Below the pieces are notes generated by a model. The model was not told the origin of the DNA, ran no database searches, and saw only the letters and a list, made by a program, of their open reading frames with translations. The position numbers were made by a program, and so were the translations under genes. From positions 1,062 through 65,061 of the forward strand of contig CAUZIB010000003.1 in assembly GCA_963579735.1 (NCBI GenBank): a stretch of DNA of 64,000 bases, read 5' to 3'. Source of the DNA: Vicinamibacteria bacterium. Its GTDB lineage: Bacteria > Acidobacteriota > Vicinamibacteria > Vicinamibacterales > UBA8438. Positions 10,311 to 36,250 of the stretch are shown piece by piece (positions within the stretch are counted from its first letter, which is position 1; the number at the start of each line of letters is the position of its first letter).

Positions 10311-11102
10311 GTGACGCAAGTTTGCTGCGTCTTGTCGGTGACGCTCACGGTCTCAGCTGCCACGGTCAGTGCGCAGTCGCCGCCCGAGATGGACTGGGTG
10401 ACTATTCCGGCCGGCACGTTCAATATCGGTTGCGTGCCCGCCGACCAAGATTGTCTCGACGCGGAGCGGCCGTATCACGAGGTCACGCTCTCCCGGCCGT
10501 TTGATGTGATGCCGACCGAAGTCACGGTCGCGCAATACCTGGCATTCAGTCGCCGATCGGGCCATCCGCTGCCGCCGCAACCGAGTTTTCTCCAGAATGG
10601 CGACCACCCGATCGTCCACGTCGACTGGAACGACGCGTTCGCGTTCTGTGACTGGGCGGGCGGACGCCTTCTCACCGAGGCCGAGTGGGAGTATGCCGCC
10701 CGAGGTGGTTCCGCCGACCAGATCTACTGGTGGGGCGACGAGTTCGAGACCGACCGGGCGAACTACAACGAGGAGTGTTGCGGCGATGTGGCCACGGGCG
10801 ACCCCTGGGTCAGCACCGCGCCGGTCAAGTCGTTTCCTGCCAATGGTTTCGGCCTTTACGATATGACGGGCAACGTGTGGGAGTGGGTGGTCGACTGGTT
10901 CAGCGACTACGCGCCTGGGCCCGTGACCGACCCGATCGTGACCGACATCGGTGTGTTTCGTCTGGCTCGGGGTGGCTCGTGGTTCAATCCTCCGACTGTG
11001 CTCCGGCTCTCGGTTCGGTTGATGTTTGACCAGGCCGGTCAGACGAGTAACGTTGGAATCCGTTGTGGGCGCGATACGCCAACGTCGGTGTTTGCAGAAT
11101 AA
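10311..11102 (+). CDS. secreted SUMF1/FGE-sulfatase domain protein
   Basis: RLLTEAEWEYAARGG, NGFGLYDMTGNVWEW, RGGSW; the catalytic Cys pair of true FGE is absent. Confidence 0.88.
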   Translation: MTQVCCVLSVTLTVSAATVSAQSPPEMDWVTIPAGTFNIGCVPADQDCLDAERPYHEVTLSRPFDVMPTEVTVAQYLAFSRRSGHPLPPQPSFLQNGDHPIVHVDWNDAFAFCDWAGGRLLTEAEWEYAARGGSADQIYWWGDEFETDRANYNEECCGDVATGDPWVSTAPVKSFPANGFGLYDMTGNVWEWVVDWFSDYAPGPVTDPIVTDIGVFRLARGGSWFNPPTVLRLSVRLMFDQAGQTSNVGIRCGRDTPTSVFAE

Positions 11103-30512: not shown

Positions 30513-31241
30513 GTGATGAGTTCCGGATTTATCCGTCTCGGCGTGAATATCGATCACGTGGCGACTGTTCGCCAAGCGCGGCGTGCGCCCGAGCCCGAGC
30601 CTGTCGCGGCGGCGGTGCTGGCGGAACTCGCCGGCGCGGATGGCATCACCGTGCACCTCCGTGGCGATCGCCGGCACATCCGAGAGCGTGACGTCGATCT
30701 GCTCCGGCAGGTGCTGTCGACCCGGTTGAACGTGGAGATGGCTGCAACACCGGAGATGATCGCCATCGTCAAACGGATCGGTCCCGCTCAAGTGACCCTG
30801 GTCCCAGAACGTCCGAATGAGCTGACCACGACCGGCGGTCTGAATATCACGCGTCACAAGGCCGGGTTGAAGAAGGCGGTTGCCCGACTCCAACGCGCGG
30901 GGATCGCGGTGAGTGTCTTTGTCGATCCGAGCCCGAGGCAGGTTGCCGGTGCCGTCGCGATCGGCGCCACCGCGGTCGAGATCAACACCGGCCCGTATGC
31001 AGACGCGCTCGGGGTTCTGCGGGACGCGGAGCGCGAAAAAGTGGCGCGGACCGCGGGGGGCGCGGTCGAAGCCGGGCTGGAGGTGCTGGCGGGGCACGGA
31101 TTGACATACCGCAACGTCCGGCCGGTGGCGGCCATTACGGACATCGCAGAGTTGAATATTGGCCACAGCATTGTGTCTCGAGCGGTGCTCGTGGGGATGG
31201 AGCGCGCGGTTCGGGAGATGCTCACGCTGGTTCAACGTTGA
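30513..31241 (+). CDS. pdxJ: pyridoxine 5'-phosphate synthase
   Basis: [33 protein letters not shown]. Confidence 0.97.
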
Positions 31242-31290
31242 TCTATCATGCAACTTGGGTAAACTCCGGCCGCTGGCCGAACGACTCACT

Positions 31291-31908
31291 ATGAAACGCG
31301 AACCGATCGTGCTGGCGGTATCCATCTGTTGTTCTCTGGCGATCATGTCGTGGATTGTGTGGAGCGAGCGACCCGTACCCGCCGCCGCTGCGGCAGCAAC
31401 CGCCATGGGAGTTGGCGCGACAGGCGATGCCTCCACTGCGCCCAGCGCTGGTGTGCCGGCCGACCCACCTCCAGTAGACCCCGCTCAGGCCGCGGCGCTC
31501 GAGGCCGCCGCCCTCGCTGACACGGGGGATCCGGCCCCACGCGTGGCTCTCGGAAACCTCTACTACCATGCTCAGACGTTTGAAGCCGCTATCCCGTGGT
31601 TCGAAGAGGCTCTCGCGCTGCAGCCAGATGATCTTGATTCGAGCACAAACCTTGGTGTGTGCTATTTCTATGCCGGTCGCGCGGAACGTGCTATCGAGCA
31701 ACTCGAACGGTCCCTTGAGATCGAGCCGGACCATCCGCAGACTCTCCTGAACGTCGGTATCGTTCGGGCGTTTGCTCTTGATGACATCGAGGGCGCCAAG
31801 GTCGCCTGGGAACGGGTCATCGAAGTCGCACCCGATGGTCGCGAGGCTCGCGCGGCCGGCGAGGCGCTCGGCCGAGTGGACGAGATGCGGGCCGGGACCT
31901 CCCGGTAG
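31291..31908 (+). CDS. membrane-anchored tetratricopeptide repeat protein
   Basis: N-terminal TM helix, Ala/Pro linker, three TPR-like repeats (LGNLYY, NLGVCYF, LNVGIV). Confidence 0.85.
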   Translation: MKREPIVLAVSICCSLAIMSWIVWSERPVPAAAAAATAMGVGATGDASTAPSAGVPADPPPVDPAQAAALEAAALADTGDPAPRVALGNLYYHAQTFEAAIPWFEEALALQPDDLDSSTNLGVCYFYAGRAERAIEQLERSLEIEPDHPQTLLNVGIVRAFALDDIEGAKVAWERVIEVAPDGREARAAGEALGRVDEMRAGTSR

Positions 31909-31926: not shown

Positions 31927-32202
31927 ATGCTGGGCTGGCTGGTGCGGCTTCTGCTCGTGGCCGTGTTGTTTCGAATCGTCATCAAGGCCCTAGCGAGGGT
32001 CTTACCGCGGCAGATGGGGCACGCGTCTCGGTCGTCCGGTCCGACGGGCAGGGTCCGTTCTCAAAAGCAGGGAGCGTTAGTCAGAGATCCGATGTGCGGC
32101 ACGTATGTCGAGCCGTCGCACTCGGTCTCAACTCGGTCTGGAGACGTGATGCGCTATTTCTGTTCCGAGAACTGTCGCGAGGCGTTTCTGAAGAGCGTCT
32201 AA
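31927..32202 (+). CDS. YHS/TRASH metal-binding domain protein with N-terminal TM helix
   Basis: RDPMCGTYV...YFCSENC. Confidence 0.85.
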   Translation: MLGWLVRLLLVAVLFRIVIKALARVLPRQMGHASRSSGPTGRVRSQKQGALVRDPMCGTYVEPSHSVSTRSGDVMRYFCSENCREAFLKSV

Positions 32203-32238: not shown

Positions 32239-33129
32239 ATGCATCCCGAGGAACGGTTCCGAGCCGATATTGTGGAAGTCGGTCGTCGCCTCCACGCACG
32301 ATCGTATGTGGCTTCCAATGATGGGAACATCAGTATCAGGGTCGATAACGACCGACTTCTGACGACGCCAAAGGGGGTGTCGAAGGGTTTTATGACCCCG
32401 GATATGATGGTCGTAACGGATCTCGAGGGCACCAAGGTGGCGGGTGACCGCGACCCGTCGTCAGAGCTGCCTATGCACTTGGCGGTCTATCACAACCGAC
32501 CCGAGGTCAAGTCGGTGGTGCATGCGCATCCGCCGACGGCCACTGGCTTTGCGGTCGCCGGGATCCCGCTTGACCGCGCGGTCTTGGCCGAAGTGGTCAC
32601 CACGCTTGGCAGCATTCCCATCGCCGAATACGGCACGCCGTCCACGCCGGAGCTTGCCGAGGCTGTGCGGAAATTCATCAAGGCGCACGACGGACTGCTG
32701 CTCGCGAACCACGGCGCATTGACCATCGCCGGCGACGTCTTCGCCGCCTATTATAAGATGGAGACCATCGAACACTTTGCCCGGATCAGTGTCGTCGCAC
32801 GTCTTCTCGGTGGCGAGCGGTTGTTGTCTCGCGAGGAAGTGATGCGTCTGCAAGATCTGCGCGGTATGTATGGGATTGCCGCACCGGCACCGATCTGCGC
32901 GGATGACGACCACGCTCCGCGGCCCGCCGAGGATGACGCGACATGCCAGGTGCTGCACGCACCCTCGTCGCCTGACAAGCGTCTTGTTCGCGCGGACGGC
33001 GCGCGTCCGGCTCTCCCGGATGTCTCGTCGGACGAGCCCACACCCGCGCTGGCTCCAGATCGTGAGATTCGACTAACATACCGTGAGCTGACGGCCCTGA
33101 TAGAAGATGCCGTGAAACAGCTGCGCTAA
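32239..33129 (+). CDS. class II aldolase/adducin family protein (FucA-like) with C-terminal encapsulation-peptide-like helix
   Basis: DGNIS.R, PSSE..MH, VVHAHPP, LANHGA; about 60 aa linker then LTYRELTALIEDAVKQLR. Confidence 0.92.
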   Translation: MHPEERFRADIVEVGRRLHARSYVASNDGNISIRVDNDRLLTTPKGVSKGFMTPDMMVVTDLEGTKVAGDRDPSSELPMHLAVYHNRPEVKSVVHAHPPTATGFAVAGIPLDRAVLAEVVTTLGSIPIAEYGTPSTPELAEAVRKFIKAHDGLLLANHGALTIAGDVFAAYYKMETIEHFARISVVARLLGGERLLSREEVMRLQDLRGMYGIAAPAPICADDDHAPRPAEDDATCQVLHAPSSPDKRLVRADGARPALPDVSSDEPTPALAPDREIRLTYRELTALIEDAVKQLR

Positions 33130-33178
33130 TGTGGCGGATGTCCTACAGTAGCCGCGGGCTCCGTGAGGGGAAGATGGT

Positions 33179-33469
33179 ATGGGTGAGGCGTTGGGGATGG
33201 TTGAGACCAAGGGTCTCGTGGCAATGATCGAAGCCGCGGATACGATGGTCAAGACCGCGAACGTGTCTCTCGTCGGGCGAGAGAAAATTGGCGCCGGCTA
33301 CGTGACGGCTATCGTCCGAGGTGATGTGGCGGCCGTCAAAGCGGCGACTGACGCTGGCGCGGCTGCGGCGCGCCGCCTGGGAGAGCTGGTCTCGGTCCAT
33401 GTGATTCCTCGTCCGCACACGAATGTAGAGGACGCACTGCCGGTCGGCAAGTCCGGTAGCAAGGGCTAG
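33179..33469 (+). CDS. BMC hexamer shell protein (BMC-H, EutM/PduA-like)
   Basis: ALGMVETKG...EAAD.MVK.ANV...KIGAG...[10 protein letters not shown]...HVIPRP. Confidence 0.97.
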
Positions 33470-33623
33470 ACCAGCATTTCTGAACTTCGAGTCGCATGCC
33501 CGGCTCATACTGCTCACCGGCGTCGTCGTGCCGTATCGATATACGCCCGATATGCCTGCCTCGCTCCGACAGTCTGCGGGTCAGCTGGTGCCGAACCCCA
33601 TACGCTGCCCCGAGACCGGTTCC

Positions 33624-33698
33624 GCGCCCGGCCGACAAGGCGCGACGCGAGAGAACTAGATATGTGTGACCGAGGAGCAGTGCAGTCGACCGGGATGC
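33624..33698 (-). repeat. palindromic intergenic element, copy E (reverse orientation)
   Basis: Reverse complement reads GCATCCCGGTCGACTGCACTGCTCCTCGGTCA...CGTCGCGCCTTGTCGGCCGGGCGC, matching copies A and B. Confidence 0.7.
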
Positions 33699-33802
33699 AG
33701 CTCTGGGCGAATACCCCGAGGCTTTCGCCACGGACTGCTCGTGCCGGCCACCCGGACTCTCCGCCCGACCTGGTTCTAGGCAATGCGGTTACAGAAGGCT
33801 AG

Positions 33803-34072
33803 ATGATCCTCGCCAAGGTGGTCGGGACGGTCGTCGCAACCCGAAAGGACGAGCGACTCGTGAGCACCAAACTTCTGGTGGCCCAACCCGTGGATCCTGA
33901 TGGTGAGGTCGTGGGAAATCAGCTTGTTGCCGTCGATACGGTCGACGCCGGGTTTGGCGAGACAGTGCTGATCGTGAGCGGGAGCTCCGCTCGGATGGCG
34001 GCCGGTCTGACCGACACCCCGGTCGATGCGGCGATCATCGGTATCGTCGACACAGTGTCAGTGGCGAAGTAA
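33803..34072 (+). CDS. BMC vertex protein (BMC-P, EutN/CcmL family) 1
   Basis: MILAKVVGTVVATRK...VAVDTVDAG.GE.VL.VSGSSAR...DAAIIGIVD. Confidence 0.96.
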   Translation: MILAKVVGTVVATRKDERLVSTKLLVAQPVDPDGEVVGNQLVAVDTVDAGFGETVLIVSGSSARMAAGLTDTPVDAAIIGIVDTVSVAK

Positions 34073-34079
34073 GTCTTCT

Positions 34080-34391
34080 ATGCAACTGGCTCGGGTCATA
34101 GGGACGGTGGTGGCGACCCAGAAAGATCCGAGGCTGAACGGTTTGAAGCTCCTAGTCCTCCAGCCTCTGACCGCGACGGGAGAGCCGGCGGGGCGGTCGA
34201 TTGTCGGTGTCGATTCGGTCGGAGCCGGTATTGGCGAGGACGTCTTCTTTGTGCGGGGACGTGAGGCGAGTTTGCCATTTCTGTCGCGCCATGTGCCGAC
34301 GGATGCCAGTGTGGTTGGGATTGTCGATCATTGGTCGCTGGAGGCCGAGCACTCGAAGGGGATTGGTGTCTCAGCGTCGAAAAAAATCTAA
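34080..34391 (+). CDS. BMC vertex protein (BMC-P) 2
   Basis: MQLARVIGTVVATQK...DSVGAG.GE.VFFVRGREAS...DASVVGIVD. Confidence 0.95.
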   Translation: MQLARVIGTVVATQKDPRLNGLKLLVLQPLTATGEPAGRSIVGVDSVGAGIGEDVFFVRGREASLPFLSRHVPTDASVVGIVDHWSLEAEHSKGIGVSASKKI

Positions 34392-34525
34392 AGGCCTGGG
34401 GTGGCGCAGTGCTCTCGTCCCAGAGGTAGCAGCACCGCCTGCGCGCTCTCAGGTGAGAGGTGACCGCGCGGCCGGGGGGCTGGCGGCTACACGAAACCAT
34501 TCTCTTTCGATGGTGGGGCGCTAGG

Positions 34526-34864
34526 ATGCGCGTTTGTCGGGTGGTCGGCACCGTTGTCGCCACCGAGAAGAGCGCAAAACTCGAAGGGGCCAAACTGCTG
34601 CTTGTACGGCCAACCGAGCCGCTGCCCACCGGACGAGATGAGCCGGCTCCGATGGGACCGGCGATCATCGCCGTGGATGCTGCGCAAGCCGGGGTCGGAG
34701 ATACGGTACTCGTGGTGACCGAGGGGCGTGCTGCGGCTTCTGCGCTTGGCCGTCGGGGCGCGCCCGTTGATGCCGCAATTGTCGGTATCGTTGATCACAT
34801 AGACAGCGGCGAGCGTGAGACGGCCCAACGGGCGGACAAGAGGCCAGATCATGCCGTCGTCTGA
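34526..34864 (+). CDS. BMC vertex protein (BMC-P) 3
   Basis: MRVCRVVGTVVATEK...AVDAAQAGVGD.VLVVTEGRAA...DAAIVGIVD. Confidence 0.95.
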   Translation: MRVCRVVGTVVATEKSAKLEGAKLLLVRPTEPLPTGRDEPAPMGPAIIAVDAAQAGVGDTVLVVTEGRAAASALGRRGAPVDAAIVGIVDHIDSGERETAQRADKRPDHAVV

Positions 34865-35060
34865 CGAGCGCGTCAAGGCAGCGGTTGACGCGGCCTTACA
34901 ACGGCATCTGTTGGGAACCACCACGACCGAGCGGCCCCCGGAGCACGTGAGCCACGCTCGCTTTTCTCTGCCGAGGGGTGCCGACGGAACGCCGGCCTGT
35001 GTGATCGAGCCAGCCGTGCCATGCACCCACTGTGGCTATTGTCTCTCCTTGGGCCACTAG
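34851..35060 (+). CDS. small Cys/His-rich protein of the BMC locus
   Basis: AGAGG RBS; amphipathic ERVKAAVDAALQRHL; C-terminal C-x7-C-x2-C-x2-C...GH. Confidence 0.75.
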   Translation: MPSSDERVKAAVDAALQRHLLGTTTTERPPEHVSHARFSLPRGADGTPACVIEPAVPCTHCGYCLSLGH

Positions 35061-35102
35061 CGCACCGCCGACTTCATCTCGACAGTCCACCAGGAAAGCT
35101 CA

Positions 35103-36089
35103 ATGGCTGCTCCAAAGGTCCTCGTTACTCGTCGACTCCCGTCCTCAGCGCTCGACAAGCTCGGTCTCGCGTGCAATGTAGACCTTCATCAGTCTCGCGA
35201 TGATTTGACCCATGACGAGTTGAGAGATCGCGTCCGTGACAAGGTTGGGATGGTCTGCACTGCGACCGATACGGTCGACGCGTCGGTACTGGTCGCGGGT
35301 AGCCATCTTCAAGTCGTGGCGACCGTCGCGGTCGGATTCGACAATATCGACGTGGTGGCCGCGACCGCGCGCGGGATTGTCGTCACAAACACGCCCGATG
35401 TTCTTACGGCGGCAGTCGCGGAGTACACCTGCGGGTTAATCTTGTCGGTGACGCGACGAATCGCGGAGGGGGACCGTCTGATTCGGGCGAACGCGTGGAA
35501 CGGGTGGTCTCTCGATTTCATGCTGGGGACACAGCTCCACGGGAAGCAGCTTGGTATCGTTGGAGCCGGCCGGATTGGCACCGCGGTGGCCACGCTTGCC
35601 GAGGGTTTCGGCATGACCGTTGTCTTTTCGGAGCGTGTCGGTGGTGGTAGAACCCCCTCGGCCCCATTGTTCGCGTCTCGGCCACCCCGGGTGTCATTCG
35701 ACGAAATGCTCGTGTCATCAGATGTCATTTCGCTTCATGTCCCGCTGACCGACGCGACCCGGCATCTCATCGACCGACGAACGCTGGCGCGGATGAAACG
35801 GTCGGCGTTTCTCATCAACATGTCGAGGGGGGCGGTCGTCAGCGAGACCGCGCTGGCGTGGGCGCTACAAGAGCGTCTGATCGCCGGTGCCGCGCTTGAC
35901 GTTTATGAGGACGAGCCAAACGTGCATTCAGATTTACGAGGGCTCGACAACGTGGTGCTGTCTCCGCATATTGGGAGCGCGACGCGAGAGACGCGAGTCG
36001 CGATGGCCGGGCTCGCGGTGGACAATGTCGTCGCGGTGCTGGGCGGGCGCCCCGCGCTGACACCGGTCGGGCCACCGGCGGTGCATTAG
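35103..36089 (+). CDS. D-isomer-specific 2-hydroxyacid dehydrogenase (glyoxylate/hydroxypyruvate reductase-like)
   Basis: VGFDNIDV, TNTPDVLT, G.GRIG, IN.SRG, LDVYEDEP, PHIGSA. Confidence 0.93.
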   Translation: MAAPKVLVTRRLPSSALDKLGLACNVDLHQSRDDLTHDELRDRVRDKVGMVCTATDTVDASVLVAGSHLQVVATVAVGFDNIDVVAATARGIVVTNTPDVLTAAVAEYTCGLILSVTRRIAEGDRLIRANAWNGWSLDFMLGTQLHGKQLGIVGAGRIGTAVATLAEGFGMTVVFSERVGGGRTPSAPLFASRPPRVSFDEMLVSSDVISLHVPLTDATRHLIDRRTLARMKRSAFLINMSRGAVVSETALAWALQERLIAGAALDVYEDEPNVHSDLRGLDNVVLSPHIGSATRETRVAMAGLAVDNVVAVLGGRPALTPVGPPAVH

Positions 36090-36250
36090 TAGCGTGTCGC
36101 CTTTGATTCAGGTGGCTGTCGGTGAGTCATCGTCGCCCCCGCTACGTTGCTCGTCGCTTACAATTGGCCCACATTGCGCGCTCTTCCCGTCTGGCCGGGA
36201 ACAACGATGACTCACCGACAGCCACCTGAATCAAAGGTGACACGCTCCTA
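36087..36250. mobile_element. MITE/REPIN-like element with 43-bp terminal inverted repeats
   Basis: 36091-36133 and 36204-36246 are reverse complements with one mismatch, 70-bp spacer, flanked by TAG and CTA; no ORF. Confidence 0.75.

Follow-up and report, generated by a model that had tools for sequence, protein, structure and literature searches.

The canonical metabolosome core, as set out in the introduction to the catalogue of bacterial microcompartments (BMCs) by Sutter, Melnicki, Schulz, Woyke & Kerfeld (2021, Nat Commun 12:3809; PMC8217296), consists of a signature enzyme, an aldehyde dehydrogenase (AldDh), a phosphotransacylase (PTAC) and an alcohol dehydrogenase (AlcDH). The passages of this catalogue devoted to the ACI type describe 125 loci, in Acidobacteria only, that combine a PF00596 aldolase carrying a C-terminal encapsulation peptide (EP), a hydroxyacid dehydrogenase (HDH; PF00389/PF02826), a triplet of BMC-P shell genes with at least one BMC-H gene, and a number of proteins whose function is unknown, while the AldDh (PF00171) is encoded at a satellite locus and by phylogeny is close only to the AldDh of the MIC3 type. 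The same passages name two Acidobacteria subdivisions for ACI, one of them subdivision 6, with an emphasis on soil. In our literature search the type was described only in the catalogue paper and its preprint, and no experimental study was found. Here we analysed a stretch of 64,000 nucleotides from a Vicinamibacteria bacterium (assembly GCA_963579735.1, contig CAUZIB010000003.1, forward-strand positions 1,062 to 65,061; hereafter the window) harbouring a cluster of shell, aldolase and dehydrogenase genes, which we read, with a probability of about 85%, as the main locus of an ACI-type BMC in a marine representative of the order Vicinamibacterales (Acidobacteriota).

Gene content of the window locus

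The cluster comprises seven genes at 32239-36089, all co-oriented on the + strand and all with strong family matches, a mini-protein with a four-cysteine (Cys4) motif excepted. Its features are as follows.

32239..33129, + strand: class II (FucA-like) aldolase, 296 aa (PF00596, E 1.5e-48)
33067..33126, + strand: predicted EP of the aldolase, approximately its last 20 residues (conserved motif, hydrophobic moment)
33179..33469, + strand: BMC-H1 shell hexamer protein, 96 aa (PF00936, E 1e-29)
33470..33802, no strand: non-coding spacer of 333 bp, with two dispersed repeat modules
33803..34072, + strand: BMC-P1 shell pentamer protein, 89 aa (PF03319, E 3e-31)
34080..34391, + strand: BMC-P2 shell pentamer protein, 103 aa (PF03319, E 3e-29; start refined from sequence)
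34526..34864, + strand: BMC-P3 shell pentamer protein, 112 aa (PF03319, E 1.1e-25; start refined from sequence)
34851..35060, + strand: Cys4 mini-protein, 69 aa (no Pfam or NCBIfam match; 14-nt overlap with the end of BMC-P3)
35103..36089, + strand: D-2-hydroxyacid dehydrogenase (HDH), 328 aa (PF02826, E 4.5e-55, and PF00389)

The cluster is flanked by a PdxJ gene upstream and by HhH-GPD (Nth-like), QueE-like radical SAM and QueC genes downstream. Both this housekeeping setting and the gene content had been read in an initial annotation made from the window's letters, and family matches bear them out.

By gene content the locus is ACI in every feature tested, and is an already known kind rather than a new type of system: an EP-bearing aldolase, an HDH, a BMC-P triplet with BMC-H, proteins of unknown function and a satellite AldDh are all present. 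The host agrees as well, since almost every record among our 80 close loci (the best 80 out of 407 confirmed relatives of the aldolase) bears a title with Vicinamibacterales, Vicinamibacteria or Acidobacteriota, and we take Acidobacteria subdivision 6 to be the Vicinamibacteria. The initial annotation had pointed to an acidobacterial BMC type without demonstrated function; that type is ACI. Compared with the account of ACI in the relevant passages of the catalogue (PMC8217296), nothing defining differs in the window locus. Our survey adds that on the satellite the AldDh is always accompanied by a second BMC-H and that the HDH and the Cys4 mini-protein are variable, not constant. The window copy further differs in carrying a repeat-derived 333-bp spacer inside its shell operon, and its DNA was found in runs labelled seawater metagenome, whereas those passages emphasise soil.

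The locus is real, intact, conserved and already known, and the window adds nothing unique to the question of the ACI type; what the ACI compartment metabolises is of interest for the type as a whole. Among 401 sampled Acidobacteriota genomes (a tally that, like those for MtnA and PF00596 below, depends to a small extent on unpublished genomes: G157 in each, plus G054 and G029 for MtnA and G054 for PF00596), PF03319 was found in 208, usually as three copies, and no same-order genome listed lacks it. An ACI compartment would therefore occur in about half of the sampled genomes of a phylum that is abundant in soils. Our comparisons sharpen its conserved core to an EP-tagged aldolase, two BMC-H and three BMC-P proteins, and an acylating AldDh on a satellite with BMC-H2; the HDH and the mini-protein are optional, and PTAC and AlcDH are canonical functions without a candidate. 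This division into core and optional parts narrows the experiments needed to assign a substrate.

Beyond the close loci, we examined a distant set, 40 loci chosen from PF03319 matches in 40 further genomes of the phylum. Eight of the 40 have an AldDh inside the shell cluster and represent another BMC type; the remaining 32 do not, although these are not necessarily all ACI, some showing just BMC-H and one BMC-P. The aldolase is adjacent to the shell genes in 21 of these 32. It is built of a catalytic domain (residues ~1-205), a variable linker with two conserved cysteines and the C-terminal EP. In an alignment of 38 sequences (the window copy, 16 close ones sampled at every fifth position of the 80, and 21 belonging to other families), the motif [IL]xLTxxELxxLIxDAVxxL stands at the extreme C-terminus of all 38, and the last 15-mer of the window protein has a hydrophobic moment of 0.67, the maximum for the protein (mean 0.24, sd 0.14). 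From these sequence properties the tail is predicted to be a conserved encapsulation peptide. When hidden Markov models of the aldolase EP and of the mini-protein N-terminal helix were run against six-frame open reading frames of the window's genome in search of further tagged cargo, only the aldolase itself was recovered (E 5.6e-11; all else E > 0.2).

The aldolase is the sole PF00596 gene of its genome, and exactly one such gene is present in 11 of 14 genomes (own, same-family and same-order). It reaches no NCBIfam equivalog cut-off, scoring 128.6 bits with OtnC (cut-off 250), 121.5 with FucA (cut-off 264) and 79.6 with MtnB (cut-off 137). Its best PDB matches are FucA and DrdA-type aldolases, equal at E ~1e-23, with 6btd, which we take to be a DrdA-type aldolase, among the top. 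In the linker (window 32850-33060) the two cysteines are kept in most sequences (PAPIC...CQV); in L101, L104, L125, L130, L134 and L136, from family f40 and relatives, it contains CQACG[YF]...C, recalling the CxxCGYC of the mini-protein.

The first shell gene encodes a BMC-H that scores 137.9 bits with the EutM model NF012018, above the cut-off of 133, and is 81-91% identical across 79 of the 80 close loci. A whole-genome search gave a total of two single-domain BMC-H genes and three PF03319 genes, so that the shell set consists of BMC-H1 at the main locus, BMC-H2 on contig C104 and BMC-P1 to BMC-P3; no BMC-T was found in this genome, whose completeness of 93.9% applies to all genome-wide absences reported here. 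This distinguishes the locus from the HO microcompartment of Haliangium ochraceum, which in the catalogue's treatment (PMC8217296) likewise has a BMC-P triplet and unknown function but whose shells include BMC-T; HO loci are not described there with an EP-tagged class II aldolase.

Contigs from four metatranscriptome runs (three studies), two matching the window at >=99% and two at 95-99% from a close strain, cover the aldolase, BMC-H, the spacer and all three BMC-P genes, together with a TPR gene and a YHS gene lying upstream of the aldolase (see below). They run from the TPR gene into the aldolase and bridge BMC-H to BMC-P1 across the spacer. One contig covers 34855-35065, the mini-protein, and parts of 34890-36110 (the 3' end of the mini-protein gene and the HDH) are thinly covered or absent; such contigs cannot rank expression. 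A side observation concerns the contigs of the 95-99% identical strain (runs X17 and X18), which skip 87 nt between BMC-P2 and BMC-P3 at 34398-34484, a strain-level deletion.

A satellite aldehyde dehydrogenase

The whole-genome search placed BMC-H2 (PF00936, E 3.5e-28) on contig C104, with an AldDh of 590 aa (PF00171) directly downstream. This enzyme is one of five PF00171 genes of the genome, and its best model is TIGR02518, acetylating acetaldehyde dehydrogenase, at 612 bits against a cut-off of 620. The BMC-H2-AldDh pair recurs in all ten other genomes checked. In each of five close chromosomes there is exactly one AldDh ortholog (62-70% identical; 60-67% by tblastn), lying directly after the BMC-H2 ortholog (88-90%) and megabases from the main locus, and in five of five genomes of four other families the pair is kept at 50-57% identity for AldDh (48-50% by tblastn) and 84-89% for BMC-H2. 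Throughout the ten genomes BMC-H2 is 84-90% identical to the C104 copy and nearer to it than to the window BMC-H, and the pair is always distant from the main locus.

The AldDh carries a C-terminal extension of ~130 aa, whose position is as follows.

Contig C104 (L006) 10475-10900, minus strand: C-terminal region of the AldDh, with EP-like helix, linker and 43-aa domain

Within the extension, an amphipathic helix (L..RIDAFL..RG) is joined by a linker rich in Pro and Ala to a conserved 43-aa domain (FVCEDDVR.A....I.I...TIITPAARDL), which is kept down to the 48-57% identical orthologs in other families. A profile of this domain found nothing above noise in the PDB, and in Pfam just sub-threshold E3_binding and PDU_like. 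Targeting-like peptides are conserved on both the aldolase and the AldDh. The satellite is flanked by genes for GspF, an SLT transglycosylase and a ChlI/YifB-like protein, a housekeeping neighbourhood that is itself syntenic.

Satellites of family f40 contain additional shell genes: the AldDh is followed by a third BMC-H in L140 (3694-3972) and by a fourth BMC-P in L141 (3417-3701). The second BMC type, seen in other Acidobacteriota families (L102, L110, L116, L117, L124, L127, L131 and L133), has the order BMC-H, BMC-P, an internal AldDh that is 28-34% identical to the ACI AldDh, and two more BMC-P genes.

The main locus itself contains no AldDh, AlcDH, PduL or BMC-T. The initial annotation had noted that PTAC, AlcDH, BMC-T, transporter and regulator are absent there, which our analysis confirms, and had described the organelle as lacking the canonical metabolosome core, a view that a BMC locus elsewhere in the genome supplying AldDh, AlcDH and PTAC would overturn. 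The genome search that it had proposed found such a source for the AldDh, in the C104 satellite and its counterparts in ten of ten genomes, and none for PTAC or AlcDH, so the description stands for the latter two functions only. Judged from sequence, the organelle includes the aldehyde-oxidising core enzyme, encoded next to a BMC-H of its own, and so is not core-less. The AldDh also separates the locus from another group with a class II aldolase. PVM loci hold their AldDh and PTAC together with the shell genes, plus further shell types. As characterised in the catalogue's sections on them (PMC8217296), PVM and PVM-like compartments of Planctomycetes and Verrucomicrobia, which act on fucose and rhamnose, likewise combine a class II aldolase with an acylating AldDh. 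The window's genome, in contrast, has its AldDh on a satellite, no PduL or Pta found, no BMC-T and no fucose or rhamnose isomerase found. The window locus is not PVM-like, because it has no PTAC, its AldDh lies outside the main locus and there is no fucose/rhamnose route.

Hydroxyacid dehydrogenase and mini-protein

The HDH is of the glyoxylate/hydroxypyruvate reductase kind, its best NCBIfam model being NF009714 (glyoxylate reductase) at 308.8 bits, below the cut-off of 455. In the 70 close loci with enough sequence 3' of BMC-P3, it is present in 59 and absent from 11. Five of the 11 HDH-less genomes were searched for an ortholog elsewhere and none was found, the best match being a paralog of 37-42% identity, of a kind that is also present in the window's own genome. 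The gene thus appears to have been lost rather than moved, since such paralogs are all that remains, while aldolase and shell genes were retained; the one of these five genomes checked for the AldDh satellite (G001) still has it. In the distant set, an HDH lies within ~9 kb of the shell genes in three of 32 loci (L111, L122 and L126). Neither terminus of the protein is extended or amphipathic, the hydrophobic moments being 0.16 and 0.24. The linkage of HDH and shell genes that the initial annotation had wished to see in relatives therefore holds in 59 of 70 close loci, within a syntenic block, and fails in 29 of 32 distant ones. Synteny across the 80 close loci covers the block pdxJ-TPR-YHS-aldolase-BMC-H-3xBMC-P-(Cys)-(HDH)-nth-queE-queC, and because the whole of it is inherited gene order, linkage within the order is weak evidence of function. 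Comparative sequence analysis makes the HDH a variable, lineage-specific accessory and not part of the defining core.

The Cys4 mini-protein is still more restricted, with 48 of 70 close loci and none of the 32 distant ones encoding it. Its N-terminal helix is followed by a variable linker, and its C-terminus forms a Cys4/His knuckle with the pattern C-x8-C-x2-C-x2-C and a final GH; ten residues are invariant in 20 sequences (S34, C50, I52, E53, C58, C61, G62, C64, G68 and H69). The family consensus of the helix is MxExxLRALVREAVARHLG, and in the window copy this helix has a hydrophobic moment of just 0.28. In an AlphaFold2 model, helix 4-20 has a pLDDT of ~90 (mean for the model 77.5), and a Foldseek search of the PDB matched nothing at E up to 10. 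Neither Pfam nor NCBIfam gave a match, and the Atlas clusters that contain the protein are Acidobacteriota-only and titled 'hypothetical protein'. A CxxCGxC spacing points to a possible Fe-S or zinc site, and from its distribution the mini-protein is a lineage-specific accessory gene. We also considered it as an adaptor tethering the HDH, and rejected this: the presence of the two genes is not associated (both in 40 of the 70 loci, HDH alone in 19, mini-protein alone in 8, neither in 3).

Two other accounts of the HDH were weighed. It could be an unrelated housekeeping gene, for example a PdxB-like 4-phosphoerythronate dehydrogenase for the nearby pdxJ, or a SerA-like enzyme. Consistent with this, the stretch from pdxJ through HDH, nth and queE to queC is syntenic across the order, the protein lacks a targeting extension and the 2-Hacid_dh family includes PdxB and SerA, although both are weaker model matches. 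However, HDH-less genomes keep pdxJ in place with no ortholog elsewhere in the five searched, so the HDH is not an essential enzyme of the pyridoxal phosphate pathway. PdxB models reach 136.9 bits, far below the 308.8 of glyoxylate reductase, separate SerA-like paralogs are encoded in the same genome, and HDHs follow a BMC-P triplet in three other genomic contexts, all of which makes a housekeeping role unlikely. At the other extreme stands the initial annotation's proposal of a minimal organelle in which an aldolase would cleave a sugar phosphate and the HDH would handle the carbonyl product. Taken as self-contained, with aldolase and HDH as the two lumen enzymes and no AldDh involved, it would have the HDH do this or stand in for AlcDH in recycling NADH. 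Its appeal lies in gene order: an HDH comes after the shell genes in 59 of 70 close loci, and one immediately follows the BMC-P triplet in the distant, non-syntenic L111, L122 and L126, whose HDHs have shorter tree branches to the window HDH than its own paralogs do; the catalogue's ACI passages, too, name the HDH as a locus component (PMC8217296). Yet the window's genome and ten of ten others encode an AldDh together with its own shell gene. Eleven of 70 close loci do without the HDH, with only 37-42% identical paralogs left in the five genomes searched while shell genes and aldolase stay, and 29 of 32 distant loci lack one within ~9 kb of their shell genes. The protein has neither an extension nor an amphipathic end, and the synteny from pdxJ to queC makes its linkage within the order inherited gene order. 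We regard the minimal organelle as very unlikely.

Our preferred reading, an ACI organelle with an aldolase-AldDh core and an accessory HDH, has several points weighing against it. The arrangement in L111, L122 and L126, where in non-syntenic contexts an HDH directly follows the BMC-P triplet and is nearer to the window HDH than the own-genome paralogs are (in a poorly resolved tree), makes it possible that the HDH is closer to the organelle than 'accessory' implies, with some functional tie. PduL and Pta were not found genome-wide (PF06130 and PF01515, with controls matched in known genomes), which leaves the canonical CoA-recycling step without a candidate, and no AlcDH is encoded in the main locus or on C104, a single iron-type alcohol dehydrogenase being located elsewhere (C27). 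With no equivalog cut-off reached, the aldolase fold could also have dehydratase, epimerase or decarboxylase activity. The locus is probably expressed, but the RNA-library contigs may be carried-over DNA. For no ACI locus did our literature search return a demonstration of enzyme activity, of shell assembly or of encapsulation.

Possible reaction and substrates

By analogy with described metabolosomes, a ketose-1-phosphate would enter the shell, where the aldolase would split it into dihydroxyacetone phosphate (DHAP) and a short aldehyde. The aldehyde would be trapped inside and converted by the AldDh to an acyl-CoA, with reduction of NAD+ to NADH. As no PTAC is encoded, CoA and NAD+ would have to be regenerated through exchange across the shell or with the help of another partner. 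The HDH most likely works outside the shell, or enters it untagged, in redox or product handling on glyoxylate, hydroxypyruvate or a related 2-oxo acid; as an optional helper, it could recycle NADH.

As to the ketose phosphate, FucA models and structures are among the best matches of the aldolase, and the locus is found in seawater metagenomes. Marine deoxy-sugar polysaccharides would supply fucose- and rhamnose-type substrates. The catalogue, in its discussion of ACI, proposes carbohydrate degradation because the PF00596 aldolases of PVM and GRM5 compartments use fuculose and rhamnulose phosphates (PMC8217296). The organelle would then degrade 6-deoxyhexoses as PVM and GRM5 do, cleaving L-fuculose-1-phosphate or L-rhamnulose-1-phosphate to DHAP and lactaldehyde and oxidising the latter to lactyl-CoA. 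The genome fits this poorly: no fucose isomerase C-domain (PF02952), RhaA (PF06134) or fuculo-/rhamnulokinase was found in it, the sole FGGY kinase being XylB next to xylose isomerase, and the FucA equivalog cut-off is missed widely (121.5 against 264 bits). We consider 6-deoxyhexose degradation rather unlikely on balance.

A different source of ketose phosphate is the DHAP shunt, whose aldolase Ald2/DrdA (EC 4.1.2.62; PMC10986504, PMC6079011) likewise has the class II aldolase fold; PMC10986504 describes an MtnP-MtnA-Ald2 form of the shunt with acetaldehyde or 2-(methylthio)acetaldehyde as products. Enclosed in the compartment, this route would start with cytosolic MtnP and MtnA converting 5'-methylthioadenosine or 5'-deoxyadenosine to 5-methylthio- or 5-deoxy-ribulose-1-phosphate, which the encapsulated aldolase would split into DHAP and 2-(methylthio)acetaldehyde or acetaldehyde, and the AldDh would form the acyl-CoA. 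As in the shunt, the window's genome encodes upstream MtnP (MTAP/MtnP model TIGR01694, 315 bits against a cut-off of 274.85) and MtnA (equivalog TIGR00512, 445.5 against 279) and no other PF00596 protein, an exclusiveness shared by 11 of the 14 genomes mentioned above. No ARD/MtnD and no RuBisCO-like protein were found, the best-scoring model of the AldDh is acetylating acetaldehyde dehydrogenase, and the presumed DrdA-type structure 6btd is among the top aldolase matches. In contrast to Ald2/DrdA, however, the window aldolase carries an EP and is unlinked to mtnA, mtnK and mtnP: mtnA lies on C37, mtnP on C4, the aldolase on C3 and the satellite on C104. Co-occurrence is not specific, with MtnA in 385 of the 401 genomes and BMC-P in 208, and MtnA does not require an aldolase partner, since several genomes, G006, G011, G012 and G017 among them, have it with neither PF00596 nor BMC-P. 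The MtnB model gives 79.6 bits against 137, and the flux of S-adenosylmethionine by-products seems small for an organelle. We found no paper combining 'DHAP shunt' and 'microcompartment'. Enclosure of this aldolase step is improbable. So, to the same degree, is the fuller scheme of a DHAP-shunt instead of a deoxy-hexose organelle, built on an Ald2-like EP aldolase and the satellite AldDh, to which the Vicinamibacterales would have added a targeted Cys4 (Fe-S/Zn) protein and the HDH as helpers. The hints above make 5-deoxy- or methylthio-ribulose-1-phosphate a speculative lead.

Neighbouring genes and spacer

Directly 5' of the aldolase lie two genes that are absent from the initial annotation.

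31159..31908, + strand: TPR-repeat protein (TPR families, E down to 6.7e-15; start uncertain)
31927..32202, + strand: small YHS/TRASH-like Cys protein with a hydrophobic N-terminus (PF04945 YHS, E 2.4e-4, below cut-off)

They are separated from each other by 18 nt, and the YHS/TRASH gene from the aldolase by 36 nt. By tblastn, the TPR gene is present in 70 of the 80 close loci and in four of the 40 distant ones (L097, L098, L107 and L123), and the YHS/TRASH gene in 61 of the 80 close loci; a TRASH-like open reading frame is directly 5' of the aldolase in four of 21 distant loci (L099, L103, L107 and L114). Both genes may be part of the operon. A consensus scan for promoters and terminators gave just weak 9/12 matches, inside genes.

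The spacer between BMC-H1 and BMC-P1, likewise absent from the initial annotation, is not a conserved part of the locus, as the same interval measures 4-178 nt in 75 of 77 relatives and ~825 nt in the other two. Its modules, at spacer positions 1-95 and ~138-270, each recur many times at 70-79% identity on further contigs of this genome, and the related loci L024, L029, L032 and L078 contain copies at different positions. No Rfam family was matched at E up to 1, the predicted fold is no better than that of shuffled sequences (z-score -0.5) and there is no conserved open reading frame. The spacer looks like a member of a small intergenic repeat family of the lineage, or one resembling miniature inverted-repeat transposable elements.

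Insertions of 3-4 kb separate the mini-protein gene from the HDH in several relatives and are mutually unrelated. In L031 (9424-12175) and L037 (9376-12213) they hold two tandem, co-oriented genes of the PGM/PMM family, whereas L019 has a MacB-like permease gene and L074 a transketolase-like gene, each on the opposite strand. Lastly, four loci with aldolases 68-72% identical to that of the window (L045, L051, L066 and L081) come from records titled as Bifidobacteriaceae, Acidimicrobiia or Woeseiaceae metagenome-assembled genomes; these are probably mis-binned acidobacterial contigs.

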